A DNA stretch of 64,000 bases from Psammoneis japonica (Eukaryota). The notes beneath the pieces were generated by a model, which saw only the letters and a program-made list of their open reading frames with translations, searched no databases and was not told the DNA's origin. Positions 1 to 64,000 of the stretch are shown one piece after another (positions within the stretch are counted from its first letter, which is position 1; each line of letters opens with the position of its first letter). The position numbers and the translations under genes were made by a program. The stretch is taken from the NCBI GenBank assembly GCA_008632985.1, contig QPGO01000101.1, positions 186,001 through 250,000 of the forward strand, in the 5' to 3' direction.

Positions 1-289
1 CTGCTTCTGTGTGTGTGTGTTGTGGCACTGAAAAAATCCATCATCACGTTGTGTTTTTGCAGCAATGTCCCACAACATGAGCTCACGGTTGAATAATATC
101 AACACAACCTGAATGACGAATGACGAGCGCACGCATGATCATGGCCGGCTCCAATCACCACCACATGATGTGTGTTTTCAACTGCAAATTGTCCAGCGTT
201 GCATGATGCGCATTTACAGCATAATGTGCTGCAGAAAAAGAACAAAAGCACAAGCGTCTCACAATGAGCGACGGCGCCACGCACCTCCC

Positions 290-2195
290 GCTGCCATCAT
301 GCTACCGGCGGACTCAACCGGTCCCGCTGCCTCAACCGGTCCCGCCGGCTGACTGACGGACGCTCGCTAGAATTAGCACGCACGTAGCCCTACGCACAAG
401 CCGCCGCGATGGATGAGTTTGAGAGTGCCGCCACAACGCAATGATAACGCAAAGCGACTTCTTCTCGAAGGACATGCGATACAATCCTACCCTTGAAGAA
501 AGCTAGAATACTAGAAGCTATACAATCATGTCTCTAAAGAACAACAAAATGCCACAAGTCTGTGAGTCATTTCAATGGATTGCTTGTCGTCGTCAACGGA
601 CAACGCCGAAGATGCCGCGATGAGTCGAAAATCACAAAAAAATTGATCTCTTACCTTTTGCGCCAAGTTCTACTCTAGAGTGGCACTGTAGCACTCTAGA
701 GAGTAGTGGCCCTAAACAGAGAGGCCATCCGCACGCACACCCACACCAACTGACTCTGCCAGCGAGAAGAAACAGCACGTTCGCCCCAACTCCATCTGTG
801 CCCTGGTCCAAATTTCATCCATTGCACTTGCACCTCTCTACACCCGACTAGGAACTGAGTGCTCCAGGATCTGATTTCCCCATGTGAGCAAAGAGTGTCA
901 AAAGACATCTGTCATGTAGAACATGGGCCTGGAAATGCCACTGCAAGCTTCAACGGTCAACGACAGTCACACTGGAAAATGACAGGCAAAATGAAAATGT
1001 GAGTGGAACAACGTGCACAATGATGATCCATTGGGGTTACATGTCACAGCATGCTCACTGGGGCACCTTTTAAATGTAGAGCTGAGTCGCCTTGCTGATT
1101 TTTATGCCCCCAAGCAACATCAGCGGTTCGTGGCATCCGCGCATTCAAGAGGAGGCGATGAACCCGCCAACACAAGCCTCAACCTTCCCATTTTACCCAT
1201 TGCAAAGCCTAGAGTCGTAGTTGCACCACAAAGATCTCCCAAAATAACGTGGACAACATTGTGTCTTGGATGATGATGACAACGCGGTTGAAGGGTGGGT
1301 GGAAAGGGTCAAAAAGGACCAGACACCTGTGCGCATGATCGAGACGCACCAAAAAAGGCTCGTGAGTCATGCAAGTTTCGTCAAAACGAGTCCAAAACTC
1401 AATCAATCACAACATGCTCACAGGGTCACCTTCTTTGGACCATGGAAAGGCTGTCTGACAAATGCCAATGTCGTGAGCATCCCCGAGACTCCATCGCATC
1501 GTTTTGTTCCCACGGCATGCACTTTCAAGAAATTGTTGTCGCCGAAAAACGACATGCTGTGATTGCGAGCCGACCAAGACCTTCAAAAACACATCAAGCT
1601 TGTCACAAGTCCAAATGAATGGCAAAAATAGATGCACCAAAAGATGTGGAGTGGGATGAAGCACAAGGCTCCCAAACGGATGTGCTTTTGTGATGACGAC
1701 GACGTGAAAAAGATGCCAACATTGCAGATGCAACAATCGACCGTACGAGACGATGTGTCCTCCTGTGAAGCTGCAACAAAGCACAAACAACATCTTTGGT
1801 GAGTGGACAAACGGCACAAAATGAGAAAACACAGAAAGAACTTGCCACGGCAACGTTGTCGACCATTCAGATGTCACCCGCACCGCGCAGCAATCGAGTC
1901 ACAAGTCGAGGCACGCAACCGTTTGTGCCGTGTGTCGCCATCAAAGCCCCCAGGAAACCAAACCAATGCATCAACCTCTTTGTGACAACAACAGAAAAAG
2001 ATCCCACATGAAAGACACATCGACCCAATGATGCATGCCATGGCGAGATGCATCAAAGTACAACATGCCGTTTTCAATGCAAAATCGGGACCGGTTGAGT
2101 CCAATCGAATCATTCGACTCTCGTGCTTCACCGTGGTGAAATTTCAGTCACGGACGCCGGGACCGGTTGAGTCCTCCGGTGCCGTAGCATGGCGT
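290..2195. mobile_element. Putative non-autonomous DNA element bounded by inverted repeats
   Basis: GGACTCAACCGGTCCCG at 310-326 (partial second copy 331-344); its reverse complement CGGGACCGGTTGAGTCC occurs at 2086-2102 and 2158-2174, with weaker inverted similarity in the flanks. No recognisable transposase; exact ends and TSD not resolved. Confidence 0.4.
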
Positions 2196-3559
2196 TGTGA
2201 TGAATCTTTTTCATGCTGGTCTGTGTTGGTGCGTGCATCCGCCGGCCAGGCTCATGTTGTGCGATCGATCGCGTGATGTGCGATTCACTTCGATGTGAAA
2301 GCACGTTGAATGTTGGCGGGTGCCGAGGCAGGTGTGGTCCTCTCTCAGTGACAGTGTCATTCCCACATGGACACAACACTGAGGGATGTTGTCAGTCTTT
2401 GACTGTCAACAAGCTTGTCTGCTCTGCACATTGCCTGTCAAGATGCTCTTTTGTGTTGTCTTTGTTTGAGCAGCAACTCTCTCCTCTTTGTCATCACTGC
2501 TCAAAGGTTGGGATCGTTGGAATTTTGCTTGCACAAATCGAGACAAATCGCATCACATGCCCCAGCAGGTCTTGAGCCAAATCAAGCAAATTGGGGTCTC
2601 TGCTTCACTCTTGACCAAGTGTTTGCAAACATTGTCATTTGGAGAAGTCGGTCATCTGAGACGAGGCTTGTGTGCTGCATCAAAATCAAAGAGCTTGGCA
2701 TGGTCAAACAACCCATCATTGAGTTTTTTCCACATGACTCCCTCCAGCACGTGCTTCAAGTCTGCCAACAAAACTTTGCAGTCATGTCTGCCATGTTGAT
2801 GACAGAATTTCCACCCATTTGCTTTTCTCATTTCCATCCTCTGATGAGAATCTGCCAAGAAGGCATTGCAAAATTCTCCGCCTTTTTGCAAGACCTTGAG
2901 TTTGCCCAACCGGAACCAAGCTTTTTTCAAATGCTGCTGGAAAAAAAAATTCATTTGACCCTTGGTGTTGAAACATGACATGCTTTTTCCTTGATGCTCC
3001 TCTGCCATCCCCACCCTTCTCCACGCCTCACACCACAATTTGAGCCAACTGACCTTTTGTTCTTTGAGGTCCACAACCTCTGCATTGGAAAGGTCCAATG
3101 TGGCACAAAAGTGTTTCCAAGCCCCATCTTTGCCATTCTTTGATGCTGTGGTCATCCTGCCACTCCTCTCTTTCTCAAGTGACATGACATGAGCAAGAGA
3201 AACGGGGGTGACAGACTGACCACTGAATGGACATTTTGTTCTCAAATGTGTCCCCCTGCAAAAATGGGGTCATGGGCCAGGAGTGACTTGACTGCCGCTG
3301 CTTTGAGCACAAGCAAACAGGTCAAAAAAGAGCACTTGCATGTCCTGGTGTAATTTTGCAAAGCATGGCAAGACTTGGAGAAATCTGTGTGGGAGATCTT
3401 GGTGACCTGCTCTTGGAAACTGTCTTCAATGCAAAACCATCTTTGTGGCTTCTTCCTTTTGGCACCATCTTGAGCCACAGTCTTGGCTTGCTCTTGGGGG
3501 TTCATGGCAGCAAGCTTGGCATTGATGTGCAGGCCACAAACCATGTTTGATTTCAGAAA

Positions 3560-3960
3560 TTTTAGGATCCCCCAAAATCACCAGGGCACTGGGGAGTTGC
3601 GTTGAACTTTTTTGAAAAAACCAGGGAATGAGGGCAATTTGTGGGAAGGAATGCCCAAAAGGACTCAGGGGGGGGGGACAAAAAATGTGTGGATTGTGGC
3701 AATGTGCAGCAATTCTTGGGTGTGCTTTCAGCCCAATGAGCCATCCATGTGGCACAACTGCAGGTGATTGCCATGACTGATGCATTGACACATTGGCACA
3801 AAGTGCCCCCTTGTGGCAGAGCAAGGGAAGAATTGACTTTGCCGCCAAATCCTCAGCCATGTTGACATTGCTCATGTGCAGCTCCTCTGTTTTCACACCT
3901 TGGTCTTTGCTCCAGAGCCCTTGTGGTTTGCATTTGTGATCACAGCACAATTTTGTTGGC
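3560..3960 (+). repeat. Dispersed repeat family A, copy 1
   Basis: Blocks ATGAGGGCAATTT(T)GTGGGAAGGAA, CACAAAGTG.CCCCTTGTGG and AGAGCCCTTGTGGTTTGCATTT recur at 26140-27075 (+) and 59170-59580 (-). Confidence 0.75.
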
Positions 3961-4030
3961 CACACGAGGTTCTGCTTTTGCCTTGGCCTTCACTCCAGAT
4001 GCCCAATGGTTTGAACAATCTGATTCACTC

Positions 4031-4306
4031 TGACAGAAATTGAAGGCAAATGGCAAGAATTCAAACAACAACTCCTTGCTGCTGTCTAAACAGCAGATGA
4101 GTCTCCGCTCAGAGACCGTCACAGGAGCCGAAGGACGTGCAAGTCGGCACAATCGGGCTGCTGTCATCATTCTTGTGAGCCTTGTGGCTCGAAAGCAAAC
4201 TACATCGCACGTGAACGCGCGGAACTAAAGCACACAAAACTGTGCACGGTGAACTAAACAGTGCGCGATGCTTCGCGCGCACCCAAATCCTGTTCAAATC
4301 CTGTCA
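4031..4306 (-). repeat. Copia 3' LTR
   Basis: Matches 11962-12237; preceded on the minus strand by the polypurine tract at 4307-4312. Confidence 0.95.
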
Positions 4307-4960
4307 CTCCCCAGTTTGCTTGAGGAGCCACAGAAACAGATTCGACTTCGGATGGAATGAAGTTCCAGAACATGAGGGGGCGGAGAAGGTCCCAGATTTG
4401 GGAGTGACCCCAATGCTTGCTGAGAATGTCAGCAGGGTTGCGGGAGCCTTCGATGAAGTGGAACTCAAGGTGACCAGAGGCAATTGCCTCACGCACACGG
4501 TGGAACGACAGTGCGGTGTGTCGCTTGTGCAACTTGGAGTGCGGGATGGTGGCACTGTCTACAACCGACTTGTTGTCACCGAACATGTAACTAACGTTAC
4601 GGATCGGGACGCCAAGGTGGCGCAGGGTGATGCGCAGGTCGACAATCTGCTCAACACAAGTCCTTGCGGCAACAAATTCAGACCCGCAGGTCGCAGTCTC
4701 CACGGTGGCTTGTTTCTTAGAGAACCAATCAGCCGGGAATTTGTTGAGGAAGTGGAGCATTCCCATGACAGAGCGTCCGGTGAGCATGCAATGGTGCAAG
4801 TTTGCATCGACGCAGTGGGTGGCAGTGACGAACTTGCCAAGGGGCGGTGGAGCGTCCTTCGGGATCATCTCTTCTGCTTCACCACACACGGAATGCATCC
4901 ATTCACAGGCCGGAGCAGGGAGATCCGAATGGTCAGGCTCTTCCGTGCGAATGCGGAGAG

Positions 4961-5538
4961 CACCGTGTCGCATCTTGGAGAGGCACCCACAGACGCGCTT
5001 GGCACGATCCAAGTGGCCTTGACGGGGCGCAGCTCGGAAGCTAGAGAGTGACATGACGGCCGTGGCAATGTCAATTCGACCAAGGGACACTGCCCATTGG
5101 AGTGAACCAACAAGAGACTGGAACTTGTGAATGCCATCGGGTCCCAGCAGTTCGGAAGTGTCCAGTTTGGGGTGGTCACCCTTCTCTAGAGGTGACAGGG
5201 CGTTGGTGGTGGGTTTCTCCCCAAACAGTCGGGCACAGCTGTCGACCACTCACCGTGTCGCATCTTGGAGAGGCACCCACAGACGCGCTTGGCACGATCC
5301 AAGTGGCCTTGACGGGGTGCAGCTCGGAAGCTAGAGAGTGACATGACGGCCGTGGCAATGTCAATTCGACCAAGGGACACTGCCCATTGGAGTGAACCAA
5401 CAAGAGACTGGAACTTGTGAATGCCATCGGGTCCCAGCAGTTCGGAAGTGTCCAGTTCGGGGTGGTCACCCTTCTCTAGAGGTGACAGGGCGTTGGTGGT
5501 GGGTTTCTCCCCAAACAGTCGGGCACAGCTGTCGACCA
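4961..5538. repeat. Tandem duplication (290-bp period) inside copia RT/RNaseH
   Basis: 4961-5248 repeated at 5251-5538; I see only two C/T differences. Confidence 0.95.
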
Positions 5539-8133
5539 TGCGCTCGATGTACTTGCCGGAGACAGGCACAAGGTTCCGTCGGGTTCCCGGGAAAAGTCGC
5601 AACCCAGATGGAACTCAATGGGTCCCGCACCCTTGAGCTTGAACTTGTGCTTTTCCGTGAGGGTGTCGATGAAAGATTGAGGGTCCTTCATGGCAATGGC
5701 GAGGTCATCCACATAAACGGCAATGTGTTCACAGTGGTCGCCGTTCCTGCGCATCCAAATGTCGGGTTCGGCGCGGCAGGGGAAGAAGCCTTCAGCTCGC
5801 AGGCAGTCGGCGAAGCGCTCATGCCAGCGGAGACCGGAGCTGCGCAGTCCACACAGTGCCTTGTGGATGACAAGGATGTGTCCTTCGAGTTTGCCGAACT
5901 CGGGTCCAGCTACAATGTAAAGCTTCTCCTTGGTGGTGGCTTCAAGGTGGCATTGCCAATGTCGGTGGCCCATGTCTCCAACTCGTTGAGTTCGGCCAGG
6001 AAAATCATCAGCCGAAGGCCACGGAGGGAGACTACTCCGGAGCAGACACTGTCGACAGGTGCATCCGTGAGGTGCCCGTCGGCTACGAGTCGTGCCTTGT
6101 GGCGACCGTCGTGTTTCACGTCGCACACCAGGTGCACTCGGATCTTCTTGTGTCCCGCAGGAGGAGTGGAAGACTTGAAGGGCCCGCAGTCATGGAAGAC
6201 TTCGTATTCGTCGAGTTGGTCCATCTCGAGATTGGTTGCGTCTCCCCACTTGCGGTTGCCGTTGCGTTCGTCTAGTGACATGGCGTGTTTGTAGTTCCGG
6301 GGAACTTCGCATCCACACTTGTGGCGAGGTGCAGTGCGGAAGGAGCGAAGCTTGGCTTGGTTGGCCATGCGAAATGGCTTCTTTTGGCGCCTCGCGATGG
6401 TGCGGAACCGCTTCCAGCCATCCGTGTCGAGGAGTCCGTTCTCTCGTGCATGGATGGCACAGGTGACGGGGTCGTCCTTGGCGATGATGGCAAGAGGCTC
6501 GGACGTGATCTCCTTGCTTTCCCATTCAAGCATGATGTTGTAGCTGGAGCCTTTCCAGGTTGGGTCGTGAGGCTTCAGAGGTCCTTCGTGTGACACGATG
6601 CGTCGAAATTTCCAAACAGTGGTGTCTTCGTCTTCTTGCTCAATGTGATTCATGATGTCATTGCAGGCAAGGACTTCCTCGTATTCGTCATTGTTGACAG
6701 AGCAGACGAACTTAGTGAGCTCGGGATTGCCGTTCACTTTCCATTCGTGGTCTTCGACGGCCTTGACGATGCGAGCTCTGTGGCGTTGTCCATCCTCTTG
6801 TGGCTGCATGAGGAAGGCACGTCCAATGATGTCTTGCGGATCGAAAACTGGCATCTTGGGTGTCCTGATCTCCCCATCAGGAGAGTCGACGGGGTTGTCG
6901 TCATGGCGAGATTTGATGATGGGTTCAGGTGGCTCCCCATCAGGAGGATCAAGACGCAGGTTTCGGATGGCAGGATCGGGGGCAGCGGAGCGGACGTTGG
7001 ACCGGTGGAGGATCTTCTGAGTCTCGTCAGATAGAATCTTGAAGGTCATCTGGTGGCCGACGTGCTCAGCAATGCCAACGAAGCGTCCACGCAACTCACG
7101 GGATTCGGACGGCCAATCGGAGTCATCGAGGTGGAAGCACACGGGTTCCCACCAGTGAAAGCGAAGCAATGGGCTGATGTCCGGGGTGGAGCCAGTGAGA
7201 GTCTCGAGGGGCGTGCACCAGTGGAGACGTGGGGACGCTGTGTGGTTGAGCATGAAGCACACGCACATGAGCGCCAGCAGCCATGCATGGGCGGGCGAAC
7301 CAAAACGATCCATGACAGTGTTCGCCATGCGCTTCACGGTCTGGCATCGACGCTCGGCAAAGTTTTGGTGTTGCTGGTGAGGCTCACTTTGCCAGCTAGA
7401 GATGAAGAGGGCGCGCAGGATCCCGAGCACTTTGTTGCTGATCTCAACTTGAGCACGGTCGCTAATGAGTTTGGATGGGGCACCACGTTCATGGATCTGA
7501 TCCTCGAGTGTGTTGACAAACTCTTTGTCCGTCTCAGTGCCGTAGACGTCAGTGATGGTAGACTCGGTGCCAACAAACAGTTGGGCGCTGGTGCAACCAG
7601 AGTCGACGGCTGGGGTGTCGGCATGAACGGTGTCAGTGGCGACAGGCTCGTTGCGGCGGTGCACATTAAGGGCGGGGTTGGGTGATTTGTGGGCCTTGCG
7701 AAGGTGTGTGCCGGTGGGCATGCGGGCGTACTGCGTGGTGCAGTCAAAAGTACGACGGACCGCATCGGCAGGTAGGAAGCCAAAGCAAGGCCGAAGAGAC
7801 TCGAAGGGGGGGTCCTTGGGCTGTACAGTGCGCTCCGGAGGTGGAACGTCATCGCCCTGGGGGCCAATCGCATGCAGATGACACTCGTAGAACACGTCGT
7901 CGTTCGGAATGAGGTGATCATCGAGGGCGGACGCGTGATCAGCAGACAAGGAAGCGGACATGATGGTCTCGTTGACAACGACACGATGACGGCAGTTGCC
8001 GCATTCGTCAAACAGGTTGGCAGTGGGATCGTCCTGTGGGTCAGAGATCGCGTCGCACCACTGGTCGTCGTCAGTGACAGAGTGATCGAGGACGGAAGGG
8101 TCCCATGTGTCATCACCGGTGAGGATGACATGG

Positions 8134-11961: not shown

Positions 11962-12237
11962 TGATAGAAATTGAAGGCAAATGGCAAGAATTCAAACAAT
12001 GACTCCTCACTGCTGTCTAAACAGCAGATGAGTCTCCGCTCAGAGACCGTCACAGGAGCCGAAGGACGTGTAAGTCGGTATAATCGGGCTACTGTCATTA
12101 TTCTTGTGAGCCTTGTGGCTCGAAAGCAAACCACATCGCGCGTGAACGCGCGGAACTAAAGCACACAAAACTGTGCACGGTAAACTAAACAGCGCGCGAT
12201 GCTTCGCGCGCACCCAAATCCTGTTCAAATCCTGTCA
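11962..12237 (-). repeat. Copia 5' LTR
   Basis: Matches 4031-4306; retains more TpA than the 3' LTR. Confidence 0.95.
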
Positions 12238-12242
12238 CACTC

Positions 12243-41928: not shown

Positions 41929-41964
41929 TTGTGTGTACACACCACAGAAGGCAATGAGTTCAAG

Positions 41965-46298: not shown

Positions 46299-46324
46299 CT
46301 CTAATGTGCAGTTGGGGAGGTGAA

Positions 46325-52458: not shown

Positions 52459-52543
52459 GTTGTTTTCATTTGCCGGTGCAGTGTAAATTTGCAAATGTTC
52501 AGCAAACTAAGTGTCGATTACAACTCAGCTTTCCTCTGTCTCT

Positions 52544-53446
52544 TCAAGCATGTGCCAGCTCCGACAACAACTTGTTGTTACCGCGAAGCAATGGTGAATT
52601 GAGCAGAGCAACTGGCGTGTGACGTCTGGCACAGTGACAGTAAAAAAACAGTCCAGTTGAGTTCTTAAGCAAAATTGGCTGTTTCGCGACGGGTGAATGC
52701 TTCCGTTCCAAGTGTGTCGGAGTGGGACGTTGCATGTGCTGGCTGGTTGACTGAGAAGCATGTTTCATGTCTCTGCTGTGCCACAAAAAGTTGCCCTCAT
52801 GGTGATCCGCTGTGAAGGACTCGCACATCCACTCTCCCGTGTGCGACGCAAACAGCAGATCTAGCGACACCACTGCAGTCCCAGCACAACACAACTTTGA
52901 AAGCATCGCCTCTGCCTTCTGCTGTGTGTTCTTGTCGTCGACCATGCGGGAGTTGCAGTTGTTGAAGAACACCTTGAGTCCTTTCTTTTTCCACAAAGGA
53001 GCCAGGCTCTCATCCAAGAATGACTTGTTGATCAACTCTAACCCGCCGTTCGAGCAAAGGCCAGCACAATGAGCCCAACGTACAGCCTCTTGGTGACAAT
53101 CGTGGTCGGACTCGATGCTCACCACGGTGCAACGGCGACGAAGTAACTTGAGCCGGATGCTGGGTCCGGCAACTCCCCCGCCCATGTCGACAGATGTGTC
53201 GCAGGTGTGATTCATGCCAAGAAGGCATTTGTTCAAAAACACTTTGCTGCTCAAAGTGAAGCCAACTTCGCTGCCGTGCGAAGATCCGCTTCCGTCTCCA
53301 GAGACACGCCTGCTCTGGAATGCGGAGTCCGGAGCCGTTTGAAGACAAAACTCCCCAACACTTCTGCAACGATGGATCATCGCATCCAACTTTGTGGCAA
53401 AATCAACCTTGCTTGCAGCGGGTTCATCCAGACGTCGCGTTTCCAA
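52544..53446 (-). pseudogene. DOT1-like class I SAM-dependent methyltransferase, TpA-mutated
   Basis: Motif I VDMGGGVAG, VVSIESD, ELINKSFLD, KVFFNN, GTAVVSL in the order of DOT1 motifs (DLGSGVG, GIE, GxFL, VIFVNN, GxRIVS). Confidence 0.65.
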
Positions 53447-56400
53447 ACCAAACTGTGACGTGCGCAGAATGCGTAAATTTACCGTCGCGCCCTCTGTGCA
53501 CGCAAAATTTTCAAACGCGGCGTGCCACCTCTACCTGCGTGTGGAGCAACGTACAAAGTAATTCAAACAGACATGTGGATGCGTTCATTTAATGAGACGC
53601 CTTTGGGTGATGAAATTTGTTTTGAATCTTGGCCTGCTTCTCATCGTTGCCACACTTGTGTGTCCGTGTAATTCAAATGCACGAGCTGGCACGGCACGTA
53701 ACGCACTTCCACACGAGAACTCGTGCTGAGATTGCCGTGGGATGATCCTCCCTCCACGGACACAAAAACAACGCGACAACACTTCCGTCATCATTTTGAA
53801 ACACATTTCAAATTGAGACACACCATGTCGCAACTGCCTCGTGCCTCGCTGCATCGTCCTGCCAACCACAAGCACTTGTTGCGATCTAGTTACAACCGGT
53901 CTCGACAGTGTGGGGGTTTGGGACGTGCAGCTTGCAGCCCGACAACAAGCAAATGCTTCTCGCGATTGGGTTCGACCCCACTCCCCTGGAGTCCGCCGGT
54001 CCCTGTCAACAGAGTTTTGCTTTGGGTGCTGTTGAGGCAACGGAAAGCAGACACATCTCTCGATCAGGTTTTGACCCCACTCCCCTGGAGTCCGCCGGTC
54101 CCTGTCGACAGAGTTCTTCTTTGGGCACTGTTGAGACAACAGTGACAGTGTCAAGCAGCGGAACATTTGCCGGCAAGTTTGCACACACGTTCTCTGCAAA
54201 CACCGCATCATCCATGTGCACCAGGATGTACGAGAATGTGTTGAGGGCTCATCCACCACTTCGCAACCGCACTTGTGCATCCGTGTGATTCAAACGCACG
54301 AGCTGGCACAGCACGCAACGCACTTTTGCGCGAGAACTCGTGCTGAGATTGCCGTGGGATGATCCTCCCTCCGCGGACACAAAAACAACGCGACAACACT
54401 TCCGTCATTGTTTTGAAACACATTTCAAATTGAGACACACCATGTCGCAACCACCTCGTGCCTCGCTGCGTCGTCCCACCAACCACAAGCACTTGTCGCG
54501 ATCTAGTTGCAACCAGTCTCGACAGTGTGGGGGTTTGGGACGTGCAGCTCGCAGCCCGACAACAAGCAAACACTTCTTGTGATTGGGTTTGACCCCACTC
54601 CCCTGGAGTCCACCGGTCCCTGTCAACAGAGTTTTGCTTTGGGTGCTGTTGAGGCAACGGAAAGCAGACACATCTCTTGACCAGGTTTTGACCCCACTCC
54701 CGTGGAGTCCGCCGGTCCCTGTCGACAGAGTTCTGCTTTGGGCACTGTTGAGACAACAGTGACAGTGTCGAGCAGCGGAACATTCACCGGCAAGTTTGCA
54801 CACACGTTCTCTGCAAACACCGCATCGTCCACATGCACCAGGACATGCGAGAACGTGTTGAGGGCTCATCTGCCACTTCGCAAGGCCCACCGCAGCCGCA
54901 GGCGAATCCGCAGCCACACCAGCAGGAAAACATCCAAGATTGCTTGCCTCGTTCCACTCGCACCGTGCGCCACTGAGAGTCTCTCCATGCACTGTGTAGC
55001 TGACCGCACTCTGGTTTACAATGGCGACTGCACTCAGCCTGCACCACCTTGTCTTGCTGACATTGACTTTGCCGAATTGGCTCCTCTGGTCATCTGTGAC
55101 CTGTGCTCGATCTGAAGCCTTTCTTTGGCTTGGACGGTTGCCGCTGCGACAACACCTGCAACCTGCTGCCGCGTTCTGCTGTGGTGTTCAGCTCTCCCAA
55201 CCCAGCAGAACCAGTTGCTCAGTGCCGGGCGCTCAAAGCACTAGAAGGCTGCACCGCCCAGTCCACCGTGCGTGGTCCACCGTGCGCGGCAAACAACGCA
55301 TTGCCTTCATGGAGACGGACAGGAGCAAGTGTTCCACGATTGGCCTGGCTGCCACGAGAGACGCTCGTTCCCATTTTTCGAATGACAACTTGATGCTCAC
55401 CACGGTGCAATGGCGATGAAGCAACTTGAGCCCGATGCTGGGTCCGGCAACTCCCCCGCCCATGTCGACAGATGTGTCGCAGGTGTGATTCACGCCAAGA
55501 AGGCGTTCGTTCAAAAACACTTCGCTGCTCAAAGCGAAGCCAACCTCGCCGCCGTGCGAAGATCCGCTTCCGTCTCCGGAGACACGCCTGCTCTGGAATG
55601 CGGAGTCCGGAGCCGTTTGAAGACAAAACTCCCTCACACTTCTGCAACGATGGTTCATCGCATCCAACCTTGTGGCAACATCAACCTTGCTTGCAGCGGG
55701 TTCGACCAGACGTTGCGTTTCCAAACCAAACTGTGACGTGTGCAGAATGCGCAAAATTGCCGTCGCACCCTCTGCGCGTGCGAAATTTTCAAATGCGGCG
55801 TGCCACCTCCACCTGCGCATGGAGCGACGCATGAAGTCATTTTAAACAGATGTGTGGACGCGTTGAAATAACAAGACGCCTTTAGGCGGTAAAATTTGTT
55901 TTGAATCTCGGACTGCTTCTCATCGTTGCCGTGCTTGCATGTCCGTGCAATTCAAACGCACGAGCTGGCACGGCACGTAACGCACTTCTACGCGAGAACT
56001 CGCACTGAGATTGCCATGGGATGATCCTCCCTCCGCGGAGACAAAAACAATGCGACGACACTTCCGTCATCACATTTTGAAACACATTTCAAATTGAGAC
56101 ACACCATGTCGCAACTACCTCATGCCTCGCTGCGTCGTCCTGCCAACGACAAGCACTTGTCGCGATCGAGTTACAGCCGGTCTCGACAGTGTGGGGGTTT
56201 GGGACGTGCAGCTTGCAGCCTGACAACAAGCAAATGCTTCTCGCGATCAGGTTTCGACCCCACTCCCCTGGAGTCTGCCGGTCCCTGTCAACAGAGTTTT
56301 GCTTTGGGTGCTGTTGAGGCAACGGAAAGCAGACACATCTCTCGATCAGGTTTTGACCCCACTCCCCTGGAGTCCGCCGGTCCCTGTCGACGGAGTTCTG

Positions 56401-57018
56401 CTTTGGGCACTGTTGAGACGACAGTGACAGTGTCAAGCAGCGGAACATTTGCTGGCAAGTTCGCACACACGTTCTCTGCGAACACCGCATCGTCAATGCA
56501 CACCAGGACACACGAGAACGTGTTGAGGGCTCAACCGCCACTTCGTAAGGCCCACCGCAGCCGCAGGCAAATCCGCAGCCACGCCAGCAGGAAAACATCC
56601 AAGATCACTTGCCTCATTCCACTCGCACCGTGCGCCACTAAGAGTCTCTCCGCACACTGCATAGCTGACCGCACTCTAGTTTACAACGGCGACTACACTC
56701 AGCCTGCACCACCTTGTCTTGCTGACTTTGACTTTGCCGAATTGGCTCCTCTGCTCGTCTGTGACCCTGTGCTCGATCTGAAGCCTTTCTTTGGCTTGGA
56801 CAGTTGCCGCTGCGACAACACCTGCACCCTGCTGCCGCGTTCTGCTGTGGTGTTCAGCTCCCCCAACCCAGCAGAACTAGTTGCTCAGTGCCGAGCGCTC
56901 GAAGCACTAGAATGCTGCACCGCACAGTCCACCGTGCACGGCAAACAACGCGTTACCTTCATGGAGACGGACAGGAGCAAGCATTCCACGATTGGCCTGG
57001 CTGCCACGAGGGATGCTC
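53113..57018. repeat. Nested segmental duplications covering the DOT1-like 5' half, the intergenic region and the TET/JBP-like 5' half
   Basis: 53113-53660 resembles 55393-55940; 53660-54270 resembles 54275-54870 and 55940-56550; 54870-55365 resembles 56550-57018. An internal roughly 80-bp unit GACCCCACTCCC(C)TGGAGTC occurs twice in each block. Confidence 0.9.
55393..55832 (-). pseudogene. Truncated second copy of the DOT1-like gene
   Basis: SVDMGGGVAGPSIGLKLLHRHCTVVSI, then breaks off. Confidence 0.7.
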
Positions 57019-57539
57019 GAATTTCTTGCAAGCAGCCTGGCACAGCCGACCAACACACTCACCACCTCACCAGACTTCTTTCACGCATGGAGCACCTTGT
57101 CAATGAGTGCGTGGACTGTGCCATCCTCAAGGGTGTCGCTCGTGTCAAAAAGTTTCACAACTGGAAATCCCTGGTGCGGTCAGATGGCATTTTCTCCTCT
57201 CTGGCGGCTGGGCGCAATGTCTTCCTCAACGCCCATCGGGACCAGGACTTCTTCCTGTCAGTGGTCACCGTGGTGGGAGTCCCTCCGTCCGGCAGCTACA
57301 ACATGAATGACGGGATTGTGGCGTGCTTCTGCTTCCCCACCGAAGGCATCTCCGTTGCACTCCGGCTTGGTGATGTCATCATTTTTAACCCCACCAAGTG
57401 CCACTGCATCTCCAGCAGGACAAACTCAAACGACGAGTTCTTCTGCGTGTCTCTCCACCTGAAGAGTGCTGCAGTGGGCAAGAACAACAATTCAATCCCC
57501 CTTTCTCTAGAGGAAGAGACCATTCTCAGGCGACTGTGA
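56106..57539 (+). CDS. 2OG-Fe(II) dioxygenase, TET/JBP-like, partially TpA-mutated
   Basis: C-terminal DSBH signature: IFSSLAAGRNVFLNAHRDQD (HxD) ... FCFPTEGISVALRLGDVIIFNPTKCHCIS (distal His) ... CVSL[H]LK. Confidence 0.65.
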   Translation: MSQLPHASLRRPANDKHLSRSSYSRSRQCGGLGRAACSLTTSKCFSRSGFDPTPLESAGPCQQSFALGAVEATESRHISRSGFDPTPLESAGPCRRSSALGTVETTVTVSSSGTFAGKFAHTFSANTASSMHTRTHENVLRAQPPLRKAHRSRRQIRSHASRKTSKITCLIPLAPCATKSLSAHCIADRTLVYNGDYTQPAPPCLADFDFAELAPLLVCDPVLDLKPFFGLDSCRCDNTCTLLPRSAVVFSSPNPAELVAQCRALEALECCTAQSTVHGKQRVTFMETDRSKHSTIGLAATRDARISCKQPGTADQHTHHLTRLLSRMEHLVNECVDCAILKGVARVKKFHNWKSLVRSDGIFSSLAAGRNVFLNAHRDQDFFLSVVTVVGVPPSGSYNMNDGIVACFCFPTEGISVALRLGDVIIFNPTKCHCISSRTNSNDEFFCVSLHLKSAAVGKNNNSIPLSLEEETILRRL

Positions 57540-57761
57540 TGGTGCAAAATAACTTGCTAAATTTGCATAAATTTGCTGACTTTCTGCACTCAGGTGACTG
57601 TGCAGACACCTGCCAATTCACCAGATTTGCGCAAATTTGCCGACTTTCTGTTCTTCCTCATTCCCATTTTTCGAACCACAACTGGGGCTACGCCTTTCCA
57701 ACCAATGCTGCACTTTCGCTGAAAAACACCAACACACTGTGCTGCTAATTTACAGAGCACA

Positions 57762-58400
57762 CTACACGGCAAACGTTTTGCCAGACGCAGAGCTTCTCCC
57801 CCCTGACTTGGGGAGCAGACGCGATTTCTTCTTCCGATTCATGGCACCCGACGTTGCCTTCCTCTTCTTCTTCTTCTTCTCCGATTCGTCCAAGTTGCAT
57901 CTGCAGAGAAATTCCTCCCCGGGCATGATTCGCTTCATGACTGCCAAGCACCCGTCGTTGTAGAACTCGCAGTTGTTGTCCGCGTGTTGGCTTGCCTTGA
58001 TCTTCTTCTTGTCCTTGAACGACTCGGTGGCATCGTTCACGTGGTGCATTCCGAGGTAGAGTGGGTGGGAATTCTTGTTCCCTGGACCGCTAAAATCAAG
58101 CAGTTTTGGCTCCACTGTGACACAGTGGCCCTCGCTGTCATGGATGGTGGAGCAGCACACGCTGTGGTCTTCTCCAAACTTGCTGTCGTGGTTGTACCAT
58201 GAGCAGCTCCTTGTCATACCGGGCACCCTGGGGCCCATGTAGATTCCAACCGCGCTGCCTTTCTGGAGCTGGCGCAAAGCAAAAAAACCAATGCCTGCGC
58301 CCCTCCGTCGTGACACGCACAGCTCGCCCACCTCCACCTCCTTGGGGCCTGCGGAGCGAGCTAACTTTTCGAGGCAAAACAATGCAGGTTGAAGTGACAC
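57762..58400 (-). CDS. SET-domain lysine methyltransferase-like protein, TpA-mutated
   Basis: GAGIGFFALRQLQKGSAVGIYMG, LGMH[H]VND, KRIMPGEEFLCR[C]N, followed by a basic NLS-like tail. Confidence 0.8.
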   Translation of the reverse strand: MSLQPALFCLEKLARSAGPKEVEVGELCVSRRRGAGIGFFALRQLQKGSAVGIYMGPRVPGMTRSCSWYNHDSKFGEDHSVCCSTIHDSEGHCVTVEPKLLDFSGPGNKNSHPLYLGMHHVNDATESFKDKKKIKASQHADNNCEFYNDGCLAVMKRIMPGEEFLCRCNLDESEKKKKKRKATSGAMNRKKKSRLLPKSGGRSSASGKTFAV

Positions 58401-59169
58401 GGCGCCTCACCCAAATCTTAGTTTGGTTTTGCCGTGTTTTTGAACAAAATTCCCCGGGATTGCCACCTTTTACCCTGTTTTTCTGTGGAAAGGGTGAATT
58501 CCCGGGGAATCGACACGAGTTGCCCTTCGTCATGTGTGTGCTTGGTGTGCGAATAAAAAATTGTGCGTTGGCAATTCCCCGTTCTTCCCCTCTTGTACAT
58601 TTCTGCGTGTTCTACGTGCCGGCACGTACGGAGCCACACATCAGAATTGAAAATCAACAATCACAACAAAAATGGGCAACACGCCATTGAGCGGCTCGCA
58701 TCCCATTTGTGACGGCTTTTGTCAAACAATGATGACACCAGTCAATCTAGTGAACGACATTGCGATTGACAGCATAAAATGTAAAATGAGTGGATTCTTG
58801 ACAGATCATGTTTAGAAAAAAAAGGTGCACTGATGGATCGTTGCACTTGTTCTTTTGTCGTGCGGTCACAAATGCAAGCCATGCGGCGTCTGTGGTGAAG
58901 TCCAAAGCAAAAGTAGAACTGTCCATGGCAAATAAAAATGTGGCGGATTGAATGGCCTTGCTTGTTTTTCCAGTCGACACATCTCATGTTCAGAATGAAG
59001 TGGGTCGTTTAGAATCGCTGTTGTCGTGCAGCTGCAAATGCAAACCATGAGGTGTCCAAAGCAAAGGCTCAGGCAAAAGCAGAACCTCACAAGGCCAATA
59101 AAAAACATGTCAGATTGAGTGTTCATGCTTGTTCTTTCCTTTGAACTGTCTTGTTTGCAGAATGCAGCG

Positions 59170-59580
59170 TGTCATGCATTCCTTCTTGTGTCGCGTGGTC
59201 ACAAATGCAAACCACAAGGGCTCTAGAGCAAAGGACAAGGCAAAAATAGAACCTCACACAAGCAACATTGATGTGGCTGATCCAATGGTGAAGTTTCTTC
59301 TTTCCTTGCTCCACCACAAGGGGCCGCTTTGTGTCGATGTGTCGATGCAATCATTGTCGTCGCTCGGTCATGGTGATAAAAGCACACCCGCCTAACTGTG
59401 TTTTCCGCACATTGCCGCATTCCATTCGTTTTTGTTCCCCTCCCCTGAGCCCTTTCAGGCGTTCCTTCCCGCAAAATTGCCCTCATTTCCTGGGATTCCC
59501 CCAAAAGAGCAAGGTAACTTCCCCTTGCCCTGGCCATTTTGGGGAATCCCCAAATGGGTAAAACCAAACTAAGATCCAAA
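59170..59580 (-). repeat. Dispersed repeat family A, inverted and less decayed copy
   Basis: TTCCTTCCCGCAAAATTGCCCTCATTTCC and AAATGCAAACCACAAGGGCTCT are reverse complements of blocks at 3640-3930 and 26150-26460. Confidence 0.8.
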
Positions 59581-60388
59581 TGTGCACACTTCTGCACTTG
59601 CTCTCTTCACGAGGCAGACCAGTGCGAGCGACCACCCCGCTTCGAAAGCCCAGGCGGCAGTCTTGAACACTTTGTTGCTCTTCGGCATCAAGTCTGGGAT
59701 GCCCCTCTTGCCGACTTCCGTGCGGCACCTCCACACCCACTTGCAGTGTTCGCCGCGAGCATTCACGATGGCTCCAGGGTCGCTCCTGATGCACCCCAGT
59801 TCTCCCAGCGCGGGGAACCAGAGGTCGGGATGATTCGGCGCATCCTTCATCAGGCACATGGCCTCCTGGAAATTATCGGATTTTTCGTGCCGCCACACCC
59901 AGCCCCACAAGTCGAGTGACGGCTCGTTGGGGTCCGGAAATTGCTTTCCTTCTTCTTCCTCTTCTGCCGTTGCTTTCGTGACCACTTTGGCCACGGGCTT
60001 GGCTGCCTCCTCGCTTTTGCCGCTGCAAAAAGGCAGGAACTCCGGTTTCACAAAGCTGGCCTGTTGACCCACCATCTTGATCTTGCAACCAGCCTTGAGG
60101 AGCTGCTCGACGGTGCAACCCAGCTGCTGTGCTTCTTTCCAGCCACAAATTTGAAAGGTTGGCTCTGGCGGCTCGGATTTCTCCCTGTTTTCAGTTTGGG
60201 ACTGCGCCGGCACCTCCAACATCCTTGCACGTTCAGACTCAACGGACACACCCTCGGCACTTCCCTCGGCGCCAAGTGCAGTCATGGCAGCTGCCGCCGC
60301 GCCTTCGGCGCCCGTGAGTTCTGCCATGACTTCCGGAGCTGCTGCATCCTCTGCTTTGCCAGACGCAACGATGTTCTCCTCCACCATT
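59569..60388 (-). CDS. Unknown protein (Ala/Glu-rich N-terminus, Trp-rich C-terminal domain), TpA-mutated
   Basis: Continuous coding-like ORF from MVEENIVASGK; no Tyr; no family recognised. Confidence 0.4.
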
Positions 60389-60870
60389 CTGACGCCGTGA
60401 TGACAGAGCTGCACTGACTGCTGTGTGGTGTGCTGCTTTATTCCAGCCGTTGGCGATCCACATCCTTCTGCGCACGTAAACGTGTGACACTTCGTGCCAA
60501 ATTCCACGTGCCCAACGCACCCTACAATGCCTGCCGCACGCTTCCGAGTTCCTCAACGTGCCGCCTCCACAACTTGTATTGTCGTCAGGACGTGGCGCGT
60601 CTGTACCTGTCTACGTCCGTCTTCACTACTGTACGCACTACGGTGCTGCAGCGCACCCTATCAAAGCCTCATTAATGTTTATTTTTTCCTTCCTTTTCCT
60701 TTTCTCTTCTTCTTCTATCTGGCTGGGAGGAACTGCTGGATAGCCTGGGTATGTCAAAGAATGGCAGAGCTCCCGAATAATAACTTTCCTGTACTGTCAT
60801 TGCACCTATTTTACCACATAGAGTCACAATTACACAAAAGCGACGAAAACGAAGTCACCATTGTAGCACA

Positions 60871-63134
60871 CTAGTTTAGACTATCTCGTAGCCGTTGCAA
60901 TAGAATACGCCTGTTCTCCCATACAAGTCGCACATCCCTGCCGTTTCTCAGTCTTAGAGTTCTCCACCGAATATTTTCACCGTCCTGGCTGCTTGGCTGC
61001 CGCCGAGGATCATGCCCAAGTCCTTGCACTAGCTTTCGTCGAAAGCCTTCGTCCTTTGACGTTCGCTCCCACCAATTCTTAAACTCTTGCAAACTTACAT
61101 ACCCGTCTTTATCCTCATCCCAATTTGCAAATATCTCGTTAAGGCTAGTATCTGAAGAATCGTCCCAGTTCTTTCCCAAAACTGCATTTGCACCACGACG
61201 GACATCCTTTTCGTCTAAATATCCGTCTCGATCCAAGTCGATAGCATAAAAGACCAACTGTGGATCTCGAACCCTTTTGAGGAGCTCGCGCTTGAACAAT
61301 CCGATTCGCTCACGAGGCTTTAATGCCCTGTACACGCAAAAGCTCAAAGAAAGCATGGTGGCCGTGACAAGAGCTCGTGCCTTTCGTCCAAAGGCATCTC
61401 GAGGAACCAATACGAGCTTGCCCATGGCTATAAATTGTTGAATAAACCCCGCCGCAAAGCCCAAACCACCACCCGCAAGAATAAGCGTGAGCTCGTCTTC
61501 CTCAAAAATGGGATGCAACACTCTCTCAAATTGTTGTGAGCTCATGGCCATCATTCTCGTTCCCAACGTGTTTTCAACATCAAGAACTTTGTCGACGTAG
61601 GGATGCAAGTCTGTAAGGTACTGCGGCAGTGCTTTCGTAGCCTTTCTGGATGCAAAATAGAGCTTTTTTGGATCTCGATTCAAATCCACGAGACCGCCCG
61701 ATTCTTCGAGAACGATTTGTGCCAAGCTCTTGGCAAATATAGCAGAAAACTGCGGTGACGTCGTCGGGTCCGTGAGTATCGAATTCCAAATCTGTTCCGA
61801 AGTTAAAACCTTGGATGCAAAAAAGCTTGAAAAGTCAGCAGATACTTCTGCCTGTCGTCGTAGAAACAAACCTTGAAGCACAAAAGGACCGACGCGCGTC
61901 GGATTGACCGGCTCAAAGATCCATTTCAAGGCAAGCCAATTGGTGGCCAATCCCACAATGAGTCCACCGACCGACATGGTCCAGGGGTTGTCCCAAAACA
62001 CGGCAACTACGAGCTGCAAAAGCCCCAGTAAAAAACCAAACCACAATCCACTGTCGGTAAGAAAGGCCAATTCCTTCTTTCCGGAGATCTGAAACAGCTT
62101 CCCCAACAGGGACCGATCTGCCATCATTTGTTCCACAACACAATTTCGTAAACTCAGAACACGATCAATATTGTCTTGTACACTTATAGTCAATACCTTG
62201 AGAAACTTGAATCGTATTCGTTGTTGCCAATCCGATTTGGTAGCGGCAGCCGTCAAGACGGCGGAGCGCATCCATTCTGCCGGAAGATCCGACGTTAAAT
62301 CTTGAAGGATGGGATCAATCATTTCATCGACTTGTGGTAATAGTATATTGGCAACTGTGGAAGGATCCACACGCTGTATCATTTCTTCCATGGACAAAAG
62401 TTGTGTCACTGTGTGATTGCGGAGTGCGTGGGGAAATTGTTTAGAGCTGTACGCCGACTACTGCTGGTTTGCACTGCAATTTCAGAATCTACTTACGCGT
62501 GGTGTTGACCATGGCTTCCGTCATCTTTTGCGTCTTTGCAGGAACTACAAAACATATAAGAGAACAAAGAAAATGGATGAGAATGCGCAAGTTTTTTCTT
62601 GAGGTTTGCCCTCACGCAAACTTTAATGCTAGTTGCGTTCGTTTTGTTTTGCGAGGATAGAAACACAAACGTACCAATACCCTGCCAACCAATAAATCCC
62701 AGAGGTTCACCTTCTTTTTTCCAAAAGGGTATACCACGCCATCGTATCGGTTTGAAAATCATTTGAACCGCCAAGTAATTTGTGAACCATCCGACAAATC
62801 CTGCAATGACTGGAATCAACGAGAAAGTTCTCCATCTTGATCGAAACGTCAGAGATCCATGTGCTATTATTCTCTTGCTCAGGGAAACGGCCTGGATGAG
62901 TGTCGGAAAGGCGTGTAGAGTCGTTATGCTGCTGCTACTGCTGTACCTGTGTCGTTGAAAGTTGTTCGTTCGAGTAGTACCAACCGAATGTGATTTTGTG
63001 GGAAATGTTGTTGTATGGTATCGAGAGCAAGATGCAGCATGATTCAACGTACTACTACAAAACGCGTCTGATGTACCAATCGCCAATGCAAGAACAGATA
63101 CAGGAACACAAACAATAGTATAGCAAGTCCTCAT
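60871..63134 (-). CDS. DUF445-like membrane protein with C-terminal EF-hand pair; probable plastid targeting
   Basis: Signal peptide ending SDA-F plus a Ser/Thr-rich transit peptide; IAGFVGWFTNYLAVQMIFKP, GWQGI|VPAK, GLATNWLALKWIFEP, FEEDELTLILAGG; EF-hands DLDRDGYLDEKD and DEDKDGYVSLQE; GT-AG introns about 62545-62674 and 62409-62496. Confidence 0.88.
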
Positions 63135-63339
63135 TTTGTAGCATCAATTACACACGTCACACACAAGTCGTTATAGCAGACGTCTTTCTCATATCCTCAA
63201 CAAAAACCATCAACAACACGCAGCGATCATCGTGCTTCAACTTTGTGTCAGCGGTCATCATAGCGGGGCGCAAAAATCGAAACGGCGACTGACGTGCGCG
63301 CCAAAAAATAGAGACCCGGAAATTAATTTCCTTTAGCTC

Positions 63340-64000
63340 ACTCGACCATCAATGATCGAAAACAATGGATCTCATGGGGTCACGCATGTTGCTTTTTGGT
63401 GGATTGACAAATCCAGGGACTTTGGATTAGCCACATCACTTGGTGTGGGTGTGGAGTTGCCATTCAACCACACTTTTTTCTGCATCTCTGACAGTTGTCA
63501 CCATGGTTCACTCTGTTTCTCTTTGTGGGGCGGCGCTTGTGCATTGCTCGGCAGCAGCACGGGCGCAGTGGTCTGTGCCCCCCCCTGTGCAAGTGTGGGC
63601 TTTCTTCCACAAATCTGCTTTTCCATCAGAAGACTGACACAGAAGCAGTGTGCGAGCCAATGAGAGCACCGCACAAGCTGCAGCAAGCTTGCTCCGCCCC
63701 TTGCAGAGCTGTCCAGCCAGAGCTCCAATTCCGGATTCCCTTGACATTGGTTGCTTCAGGCTCAATGCCTTGCACTTCTGGCTTGCGCCACAGTCATCCA
63801 GAGAGCTGGTCAAAGAGTGCATCAGATGCCGGAGGACAGCAATCAACAACCCATCAAAAAAATGGCTCCGCACAGAGATGAGAAAGTCCTCACACCGCTG
63901 TGTTTGTGCTGCAGAAAAAATGTGGCACAAAACAACCAGCACACACAGCTGTGACTGGCCTTGTGCAGAGTGGGAGGAATTTGATGGCTTTGGAGGCTGT
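63340..64000. other. Start of another TpA-depleted repeat block
   Basis: No TpA seen after about 63430; no recognisable ORF. Confidence 0.55.

Follow-up and report, generated by a model that had tools for sequence, protein, structure and literature searches.

Probable TpA-directed hypermutation of transposons and silent DNA in a nuclear window of the diatom Psammoneis japonica

In a 64-kb stretch of nuclear DNA from the diatom Psammoneis japonica (assembly GCA_008632985.1, contig QPGO01000101.1, positions 186,001 to 250,000 of the forward strand; hereafter the window, numbered from its first base), the dinucleotide TpA has been largely lost from transposable elements (TEs) and repeats, and TpG and CpA have risen in its place. 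The reading favored here, to which a probability of roughly three in four is assigned, is that of a localized hypermutation of TpA to TpG or CpA, which has acted on transposons and repeats as well as on at least one silent block that is not a recognizable TE, and which has spared the expressed host genes that lie a few hundred bases from them.

Loss of TpA and the direction, timing and context of the change

Over the whole window, TA occurs 1107 times where base composition predicts 4026 occurrences (observed/expected ratio, O/E, of 0.27), with O/E values of 1.46 for TG, 1.42 for CA, and 0.78 for CG. Segmentation into 128 bins of 500 bp separates TA-poor blocks (1001-15500, 25501-28500, 32001-60500, and 63501-64000, all interrupted by a few bins of weaker depletion) from islands of normal TA content (15501-25500, 28501-32000, and 60501-63500). 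Pooled, the poor blocks (44,000 bp, GC content 50.9%) have O/E values of 0.13 for TA, 1.53 for TG/CA, and 0.70 for CG, against 0.57, 1.20, and 1.00 in the islands (16,500 bp, GC content 46.5%), and TA falls to 0.03-0.05 in near-saturated sub-blocks. The switch between the two states is sharp, occurring within approximately 200 bp: the segment 15401-15600, for example, holds one TA per 39 TA, TG, and CA dinucleotides, and the bin after it eight per 34. Across the 128 bins, TA and the mean of TG and CA (as O/E, or rho) vary inversely (r = -0.69). Pfam matches place the poor blocks on copia, gypsy, Helitron, and unclassified repeat sequences, and the islands on host genes. The contrast between depleted TE blocks and normal islands, originally noted in a preliminary description of this DNA, is thus borne out; its statement that every TE block is depleted holds overall, but one poor block (32001-35500) contains no identifiable TE, and one LTR of the copia element, together with the end adjoining it (11001-12238), is much less depleted than the remainder.

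The balance sheet of dinucleotides identifies the source of the excess TG and CA. The poor blocks have lost 32.6 TA and 9.1 CG per kb and have gained 42.2 TG and CA per kb; the losses match the gain, with TA as the principal source and CpG as a lesser one, accounting for approximately one fifth. Decay of 5-methylcytosine (5mC) alone does not produce this pattern, as CpG contributes only 9.1 of the 41.7 dinucleotides lost per kb, the remainder being TA. The earlier exclusion of 5mC decay stands in that CpG decay cannot remove TA, and is to be amended in that the same decay is the source of roughly one fifth of the added TG and CA.

The effect on coding sequences is equally distinctive. The window contains 44 open reading frames (ORFs) of at least 200 residues, and long, overlapping ORFs have stayed open on both strands of the poor blocks because the change of TA to TG or CA creates no stop codon and removes two of the three (TAA yields TGA or CAA; TAG yields TGG or CAG). 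All ORFs of the poor blocks have a tyrosine content between 0 and 1.1%, and TA is lost from all three codon phases.

Comparison with homologous proteins reveals which residues have been replaced. The copia-type long terminal repeat (LTR) retrotransposon at 4025-12238 (minus strand; TA O/E 0.21) carries a pol ORF at 5910-8429 (minus strand) with a Pfam RVT_2 match and 704 homologues, of which the top 40 of the 120 listed were aligned. Among the 427 columns in which at least 70% of homologues agree, the copy in the window departs from the consensus in 60. Conserved tyrosine columns are altered in 16 of 21 cases (eight to Cys, four to His, two to Thr, one to Phe, and one to Trp), compared to 44 of 406 for all other conserved columns; the 15 columns of conserved Cys or His are all unaltered. 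In a leave-one-out control, where each homologue served in turn as the query, 141 of 1260 tyrosine cells were altered, Phe being the usual replacement and Cys or His accounting for only 35; the excess of Tyr to Cys/His replacements in the window (12 of 21 columns) is highly significant (Fisher p = 3e-13). Two further TE classes tell the same story. In the Helitron, the 755 residues of the Rep ORF (47680-49947) include 2 Tyr, 43 Cys, and 43 His, against homologue medians of 3.2, 3.0, and 3.1%, respectively, which confirms the tyrosine count reported earlier. In the neighboring Helitron ORF (46648-47679), both tyrosines of the Rep motif, located by alignment to the pattern '...Y..KY..K.TQ' in a 1911-residue homologue, have become His and Cys; these two residues are presumably the catalytic tyrosines of Rep. 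The column test applied to copia had little to work on in the Helitron, where only two tyrosine columns are conserved, partly due to the fact that some homologues are themselves free of tyrosine. Lastly, comparison of the gypsy reverse transcriptase (RT) to the Ty3 RT structure shows four Tyr to Cys/His changes and one Leu to Pro.

The loss of TA from all codon phases, together with the destruction of conserved tyrosines, indicates that the process is mutational rather than an effect of codon or amino-acid preference, and the protein alignments establish its direction as TA to TG/CA, i.e., T:A to C:G. The direction proposed in the preliminary description is upheld by the copia, Rep, and gypsy comparisons alike, all eight of the peptide motifs that it quoted were recovered from the window, and copia, gypsy, and Helitron sequences are indeed affected in the same manner.

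The timing of the changes can be read from the LTRs. The two LTRs of an element are identical when it integrates, and a position at which one carries TG and the other CA records two independent changes of a single ancestral TA or CG. The copia LTRs (4025-4307 and 11956-12238; 94.7% identical) differ at 15 positions in 283 bp, of which eight oppose TA to TG or CA, four lie in two TG-versus-CA doublets, two are CpG differences, and one is of another type. The LTRs of the gypsy element (41545-41928 and 46321-46703; 94.3% identical) have 23 mismatches in 384 bp, with 14 in seven doublets, one TA versus CA, four at CpG, and four others. Because the LTRs of a single element differ at TA-derived sites, these comparisons demonstrate changes made after integration, separately on each copy, and at the DNA level. 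In nine paralogous pairs from the window, 55 of 68 adjacent double mismatches are of the TG/CA type, whereas CpG decay alone, estimated from single CpG differences, predicts about 8.3. In a three-copy repeat where the ancestor can be resolved, four columns contain TA, TG, and CA, and two contain CG, TG, and CA; the doublets are thus of both TA and CG ancestry, as far as the paralogues allow them to be resolved, with TA dominating. The per-base rate at TA in the two LTR pairs is 86-162 times that of other sites, a rough figure in that the pairs hold only one and four background differences, and approximately 13-15 times that of CpG decay.

Both strands are seen to be affected in these comparisons, without long strand-coordinated tracts: a runs test on the order of TG and CA gave no tract signal in eight poor blocks (z from -1.65 to +2.49) or in three islands (z from -1.73 to +0.92).

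The process also leaves a fingerprint in the bases that surround TA. Survival of TA in the poor blocks relative to the gene islands, calculated by tetranucleotide, ranges from complete loss in ATAT (0.00; none left versus approximately 165 expected) through ATAC (0.03), ATAG (0.06), GTAC (0.08), CTAC (0.16), ATAA (0.21), GTAA (0.26), CTAG (0.44), and CTAA (0.52) to near-complete retention in TTAA (0.90). Survival figures cannot separate the effect of the base 5' of T from that of the base 3' of A, but changes whose strand can be assigned by comparison of copies (polarized events) can do so. At GTAA/TTAC sites, 14 polarized single events fell 12 times on the strand where the edited A is followed by C and twice on the strand where it is followed by A (p = 0.013). 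Among 36 polarized single events from paralogues, the base following the edited A was C in 17 chosen versus 6 unchosen strands, and A in 7 chosen versus 18 unchosen strands. These sequence contexts show the target to be T-A-pyrimidine (TAY, in the order TAT >= TAC > TAG >> TAA), with TAA nearly immune. The side effects of the change in the poor blocks fit the same target, AT falling by 20.8 per kb (TAT to TGT) and GC rising by 18.6 per kb (TAC to TGC). Furthermore, leftover TA is enriched for the context YTAR (Y, pyrimidine; R, purine) in 11 of 12 poor sub-blocks, 32001-35500 included, where it represents 31-78% of the remaining sites against 13-18% in the islands; the exception, 1401-4000, has six TA left. 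Trinucleotide gains on the product side were not used, being confounded by CpG decay and TE composition.

Candidate chemistry and competing explanations

The process, which is specific for TpA on either strand and confined to TE, repeat, or silent DNA, would be enzymatic; an enzyme is invoked because a rate approximately 100-fold above background, combined with a tight three-base context, would be hard to obtain otherwise. In the proposed scheme, the adenine of 5'-TA-3' in DNA would be deaminated to hypoxanthine and copied as G, with 5mC decay at CpG running alongside as a second, slower process. The T that precedes the target A matches the U33-A34 of tRNA substrates of TadA/ADAT. Adenine deamination in DNA is considered to be the most likely chemistry, with odds that are about even when it is taken on its own. 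Targeting would be provided by a silent chromatin state or silencing pathway and not by copy number, a suggestion that comes, weakly, from the orphan block at 32001-35500 and its gene-like word depth. The description of the process as repeat-targeted goes further than the data: most targets are repeats, but a block that appears to be single-copy is also affected, and silent chromatin fits at least as well.

A closely similar process has been observed in progress in the chlorarachniophyte Bigelowiella natans. In mutation-accumulation lines of this organism, Mettrop et al. (bioRxiv 10.64898/2026.01.13.699255) followed an integrated giant-virus (nucleocytoplasmic large DNA virus, NCLDV) region and a virophage region, in which 230 of 231 de novo mutations were A>G or T>C, every GC-biased mutation being reported at TpA; the rate was approximately 1000 times background, and hypermutation appeared in some lines only. 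The same preprint describes 124 genomic clusters of TpA-poor windows rich in CpA and TpG and an over-representation of RT and DDE domains among low-TpA coding sequences, and its authors propose, without direct evidence, an ADAT2-like adenine deaminase acting on DNA. As far as the preprint's account goes, the likeness to the window covers several features: both systems involve T:A to C:G transitions at TpA that give TpG/CpA, both are limited to foreign or selfish DNA beside normal genes (islands here have TA O/E values of 0.54-0.58), both proceed at target-site rates orders of magnitude above background (here the imprecise 86-162-fold), and both leave a long-term TpA-poor, CpA+TpG-rich footprint, seen there as 1-kb clusters and RT/DDE coding sequences. 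In addition, the NCLDV region is described as single-copy and transcriptionally silent, and thereby resembles the apparently single-copy block 32001-35500. The two cases differ in host (a stramenopile here, a member of Rhizaria there), in the manner of observation (read from sequence here, watched in mutation-accumulation lines there), and in target and extent, the window's LTR retrotransposons, Helitron, and satellite-like repeats having TA O/E values of 0.03-0.21, and the Bigelowiella viral region being reported as only 1.8-fold depleted. The pyrimidine preference at the position following the A is a feature of the window. The two are presumably the same kind of process. The earlier remark that no characterized pathway was known to match still holds, but a matching pattern is now on record (bioRxiv 10.64898/2026.01.13.699255).

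Among the competing explanations, the one that survives best, although it is judged unlikely, is that a TET/JBP-type dioxygenase oxidizes the T of TpA in silenced DNA to 5-hydroxymethyluracil (5hmU) or 5-formyluracil, which would mispair with G and yield T to C changes. 5-Formyluracil does mispair with G, and at the palindromic TA step the outcome is the same as that of adenine deamination, so that the analyses presented here do not tell the two apart. We know of no 5hmU in diatoms, nor is diatom 5hmU or a TET/JBP enzyme on record in the literature found. Dinoflagellates, which like diatoms belong to the stramenopile-alveolate-Rhizaria (SAR) group, are reported to carry TET/JBP-made 5hmU mostly on repeats, where it helps to silence TEs, and older work cited for them places the base preferentially in the dinucleotides TA and TC (PMC11572971). 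This is a SAR system that acts on T:A pairs with a preference for TA and for repeats, as in the window, but as described in that source it is an epigenetic silencing mark and not a mutation, and it sits at TC as well (PMC11572971), whereas TC/GA is not depleted here (TC O/E of 1.05 in poor blocks and 1.12 in islands). The Bigelowiella authors also favor adenine deamination, on what their preprint presents as no direct evidence.

A much less probable source of the changes is error-prone repair, in which mismatch or base-excision patches in methylated silent DNA would be filled by an enzyme resembling polymerase eta, inserting G opposite T at WA (W, A or T). Polymerase eta has such a WA to WG preference, as seen in the A:T phase of antibody somatic hypermutation, and the same blocks undergo CpG decay, which generates T:G mismatches (paralogues show 114 CpG differences), with the most TA-depleted sub-blocks being also the most CpG-depleted. 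Such a mechanism should nevertheless affect AA, which is part of WA and is not depleted (O/E of 1.26 in poor blocks versus 1.15 in islands). It would also have to account for the nearly pure transitions and the almost total loss of favored contexts, with not one ATAT remaining, and for blocks whose CpG is nearly intact (CG O/E 0.86-0.92) and whose TA is nonetheless down to 0.17-0.21. In Bigelowiella, 230 of 231 mutations were transitions, reported at TpA in the preprint.

It is also highly improbable that the signature is an artefact, in which a modified base at TpA in heterochromatin has been miscalled and the true DNA is still TA. Long-read base-callers do miscall some modified bases, and the sequencing platforms of both the assembly and run X1 are not on record. 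Logan contigs from run X1 alone, however, carry the same TA-poor sequence and have short-read-like features (a word depth of about 50-65 and pieces of 1-5 kb broken at variants): they reproduce 33944-36000 with 4 other letters and 32774-33942 with 13, and bridge 27752-32706 with 4. Miscalling would furthermore affect identical copies equally, while the LTRs of one element differ (TA versus TG/CA, and TG versus CA), and the same signature is present in public proteins and in environmental contigs from other projects (contig L005, discussed below). The short-read check called for in the preliminary description has thus been run in part, with X1 contigs that are TA-poor too but come from a run of unrecorded platform that may be the assembly's own source.

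Scarcely tenable is the idea of ADAR-like A-to-I hyperediting of retroelement RNA that became permanent on reverse transcription and integration. A single cDNA gives rise to both LTRs of an insertion, yet they differ at TA-derived sites, and the Helitron, a DNA transposon, is as heavily damaged as the retroelements; together these observations exclude editing of retroelement RNA. Non-coding repeats are equally affected, the changes lie on both strands (a single ORF shows Tyr to Cys as well as Tyr to His), and copia tandem duplicates have diverged by eight doublets since their duplication. To our knowledge, ADARs do not occur outside animals. More generally, the animal systems based on ADAR and APOBEC3 share with the window the hypermutation of selfish elements, by base deamination, but act before or during integration (ADAR on double-stranded RNA, APOBEC3 on cDNA), on one strand, and on retroelements only, whereas the changes described here are post-integrational, lie on both strands, and include a DNA transposon. 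APOBEC editing is rejected on the additional ground that it alters C, and not A. What favors an ADAR-like enzyme is that ADARs, which change A to G, are known to prefer U or T immediately 5' of the edited base (bioRxiv 10.64898/2026.01.13.699255).

An equally faint prospect is that no mutator exists, TG and CA deriving from CpG decay, and the poverty in TA being an inherited composition of the TEs or the result of selection against TA. CpG decay is real in the window, and host genes are themselves mildly TA-poor (0.57). Against this are the excess of TA loss over CG loss (32.6 versus 9.1 per kb), the normal TA and 3-4% tyrosine of Helitron and copia relatives elsewhere, the post-insertion divergence of LTRs at TA sites, and the destruction of conserved tyrosines, including both in the Rep motif, which selection on a working element would forbid. 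Biased gene conversion can be dismissed because the change is TA-specific, with AA/TT undepleted.

[quoted passage not shown] It does resemble the process in the window, insofar as dense, dinucleotide-specific transitions wreck TE genes and spare nearby ones, on DNA, after integration, and copy by copy; but RIP changes C:G to T:A mostly at CpA, creating TpA and stop codons and lowering GC, whereas in the window TpA is destroyed, no stops can arise, GC has gone up from 46.5 to 50.9%, and ORFs stay open. RIP is premeiotic and depends on RID/DIM-2. A RIP-type duplication trigger would suit most targets in the window, which are repeats, yet 32001-35500 has a gene-like word depth, a measure that is not copy number. 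As for 5mC decay, it is a second process in the window that feeds the same TG/CA pool (the 114 CpG versus TpG/CpA differences among paralogues) and has brought CG down to an O/E of 0.17 in the oldest blocks, but it cannot remove TA and is slower per base by the factor of approximately 13-15 derived from the LTRs.

Several points weigh against the hypermutation reading. It rests on one 64-kb window and was reached without mutation being observed in progress; its chemistry is not fixed by the data, which fit adenine deamination and thymine modification alike; and run X1, of unrecorded platform and possibly the assembly's own data, is not independent proof of the sequence. The apparent single-copy status of 32001-35500 relies on contig word depth, which is not equivalent to copy number. 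Damage is uneven, as 10 TA are retained in one copia LTR (11956-12238) and 4 in the other (4025-4307), and six TA persist in both gypsy LTRs beside seven doublets. CpG decay also generates doublets (two of the six resolvable columns), and among paralogues CpG differences (114) exceed single TA-versus-TG/CA differences (42). Finally, the TAY preference has no counterpart figure in the main text of the Bigelowiella preprint.

Elements, repeats and genes of the window

The copia element contains two internal tandem duplications of unlike divergence: the copies at 4961-5248 and 5251-5538 are 99.3% identical and differ only at two CpG sites, and those at 8134-8940 and 8944-9753 are 95.6% identical and differ by eight TG/CA doublets. 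On this evidence, either one duplication would be younger and the other older than the hypermutation, or the two would sit in differently exposed parts of the element. In seven of the eight single TA differences between the LTRs, it is the LTR at 11956-12238 that retains TA; the 1 kb of the element from 11001 that adjoins this LTR is less depleted (TA O/E 0.38), and the flank directly outside it (12239 onward) has zero TA. No target-site duplication was recognizable at the BLAST-derived LTR ends.

The Helitron is split by the gypsy-type element, which lies at 41545-46703 (plus strand; TA O/E 0.19) and encodes a protease-RT ORF (43120-44538, plus strand, RVT_1) and an integrase zinc domain (Integrase_H2C2, within 44755-45546, plus strand). 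The Helitron ORFs of the minus strand resume on both sides of this insertion. On one side is the distal, helicase-side part at 38901-41544 (minus strand; TA O/E 0.15), whose ORFs at 39004-40080 and 40653-41612 contain 1.1% and 0% tyrosine and across which the alignment consensus of full-length Helitron proteins extends; on the other is the Rep part at 46704-49947 (minus strand; TA O/E 0.20), with Helitron_like_N and DUF6570 matches in 47680-49947. The similar depletion of the Helitron and gypsy sequences (TA O/E 0.15-0.20) indicates that the process persisted through at least two successive insertions.

Unclassified repeat DNA makes up most of the other poor blocks. At 1001-4024, it is hypermutated (sub-block 1401-4000 with TA O/E 0.03 and CG 0.48) and weakly resembles, at the DNA level, the stretches at 26.1-27.1 kb and 59.2-59.6 kb. 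The segments at 12239-15500 (TA 0.04, CG 0.17; YTAR contexts hold six of its eight leftover TA), 25501-28400 (TA 0.05, CG 0.40), and 36001-38900 (TA 0.05, CG 0.34) are near-saturated. The second of these belongs to a multi-copy family: word depth in run X1, summed over 1183 contigs on a 20-kb stretch, reaches 1794-14072 in three bins of 26006-28006 and is 47-87 elsewhere. Unclassified repeats and tandem arrays, also hypermutated (TA O/E 0.12-0.21), occupy 50001-60500, with a 617-bp unit at 53650-54883 and 55934-56548, units of 128/129 bp at 50035-50732, and a 99-bp unit at 56239-56417. Array copies are 75-95% alike, and their divergence lies largely at TA- and CpG-derived sites. A further TA-free block begins at 63401-64000 (no TA in 63501-64000) and continues past the end of the window.

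The block at 32001-35500 is of a different nature. It is moderately hypermutated (TA O/E 0.17, CG 0.92) and holds two orphan ORFs on the plus strand, at 32120-33193 and 33106-35499, with weak ankyrin and CesT-like matches. For the ORF at 33106-35499, 8000 scored candidates yielded no homologue (E <= 1e-5); its product lacks similarity to the adjoining TIR-ankyrin protein and, like those of eight other ORFs, has no match in PHROGs. The block is spanned by two long X1 contigs with a word depth of 63-65, similar to that of adjoining gene contigs. It lies directly downstream of the TIR-ankyrin gene, which is intact, and may represent a silenced gene or a foreign insert rather than a TE.

Three islands carry genes of normal composition. 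The first, at 15501-25500 (TA O/E 0.58), includes a DegT/DnrJ aminotransferase gene (20308-21575, Pfam) with one intron. A contig from run X2 omits 143 nt with GT..AG ends inside this gene (joint at 20205-20349), in what looks like a spliced intron. The second island, at 28401-32000 (plus strand; TA O/E 0.54), contains an ORF (28711-31497, Pfam) of 928 uninterrupted residues whose product combines a TIR domain at the N terminus with ankyrin repeats, an architecture of immune type; the ORF is of normal composition, and a 2.8-kb X2 contig covers it. Run X2, which is recorded as 'DNA?', has its contigs on gene islands, and none were seen over 26-28 kb or 32.7-36 kb, a distribution that says nothing on expression. 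The third island, at 60501-63400 (minus strand), carries a DUF445 and EF-hand ORF (60871-62457, Pfam), the best-conserved host gene, with 655 relatives and a best match of 65% identity. Its named top relatives are nearly all diatoms (Seminavis, Cyclotella, Thalassiosira, and others), and the window is nuclear diatom DNA.

Occurrence elsewhere and significance

Poverty in TA is not a trait of the Helitron family, since 66 of 71 environmental loci that encode relatives of the window's element have a rhoTA of 0.38-0.89. One exception, the 7302-bp metagenome contig L005, has a rhoTA of 0.02, with nine TA left, eight of which are followed by A on one strand, and contains an open Helitron ORF of 1752 residues with only two tyrosines; the element is 42% identical to that of the window. 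As judged from its leftover sites, L005 has the same fingerprint. Three other metagenome Helitron loci (L027, L028, and L030) have rhoTA values of 0.11-0.18, rhoCG values of 0.00-0.08, and ordinary leftover TA contexts, and may reflect either some other process or the one described here, acting in a host with heavy CpG methylation. In public proteins that are 300 or more residues long, tyrosine is below 1% in six of 132 Helitron matches and one of 120 copia matches listed. Five Helitron proteins (P0243, P0260, P0381, P0353, and P0244) and one copia protein (P0200) have 0-1% tyrosine and raised Cys and His contents, and two are entirely free of tyrosine (P0243, 866 residues; P0260, 1355 residues). 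Such sequences are probably hypermutated, dead TE copies that have been called as genes.

In the literature covered, which did not include subscription journals, no report of this pattern in diatoms was found, and the Bigelowiella natans preprint is its sole match; within the main text of that preprint, the words 'diatom', 'stramenopile', 'context', and 'trinucleotide' do not occur (bioRxiv 10.64898/2026.01.13.699255). A process of this kind has thus been reported once, in 2026, in another SAR lineage; what is new here is the diatom host, the far higher saturation, the action on transposons, and the TAY preference. Tentatively, and at somewhat below even odds, it can be proposed that diatoms and chlorarachniophytes share a dedicated defence pathway, at least as old as SAR and widespread in marine protists, in which an enzyme specific for T-A-pyrimidine acts on silenced DNA whatever its copy number. 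Most simply, this enzyme would be an adenine deaminase that a silencing or chromatin reader brings to its target, and its conversion of TA to TG/CA would continue up to the death of transposons and integrated viruses, whose reading frames would nonetheless stay open. The deaminase-SAM-Tudor proteins that Iyer et al. 2011 (PMC3239186) list for stramenopiles only provide a lead in this regard, and not evidence.

The mutational defences known for eukaryotic genomes are mainly of the C-to-T kind (RIP, APOBEC, and 5mC decay), and an A:T-to-G:C counterpart was first reported in 2026, in one alga; with the near-saturated diatom case, it extends to at least two SAR lineages and is not the curiosity of a single strain. 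The TAY fingerprint can be used to recognize the process in any genome, to test candidate enzymes, and to compare the window with Bigelowiella, and a natural enzyme that turns A:T to G:C in double-stranded genomic DNA would be of interest for base editing. In addition, transposons that have died in this manner look like long, intact ORFs, low in tyrosine and high in Cys and His, by which gene callers and estimates of TE activity can be misled. If a shared pathway does exist, the TE landscapes and gene predictions of protists would have been silently shaped by it, with a footprint that is visible in environmental contigs.

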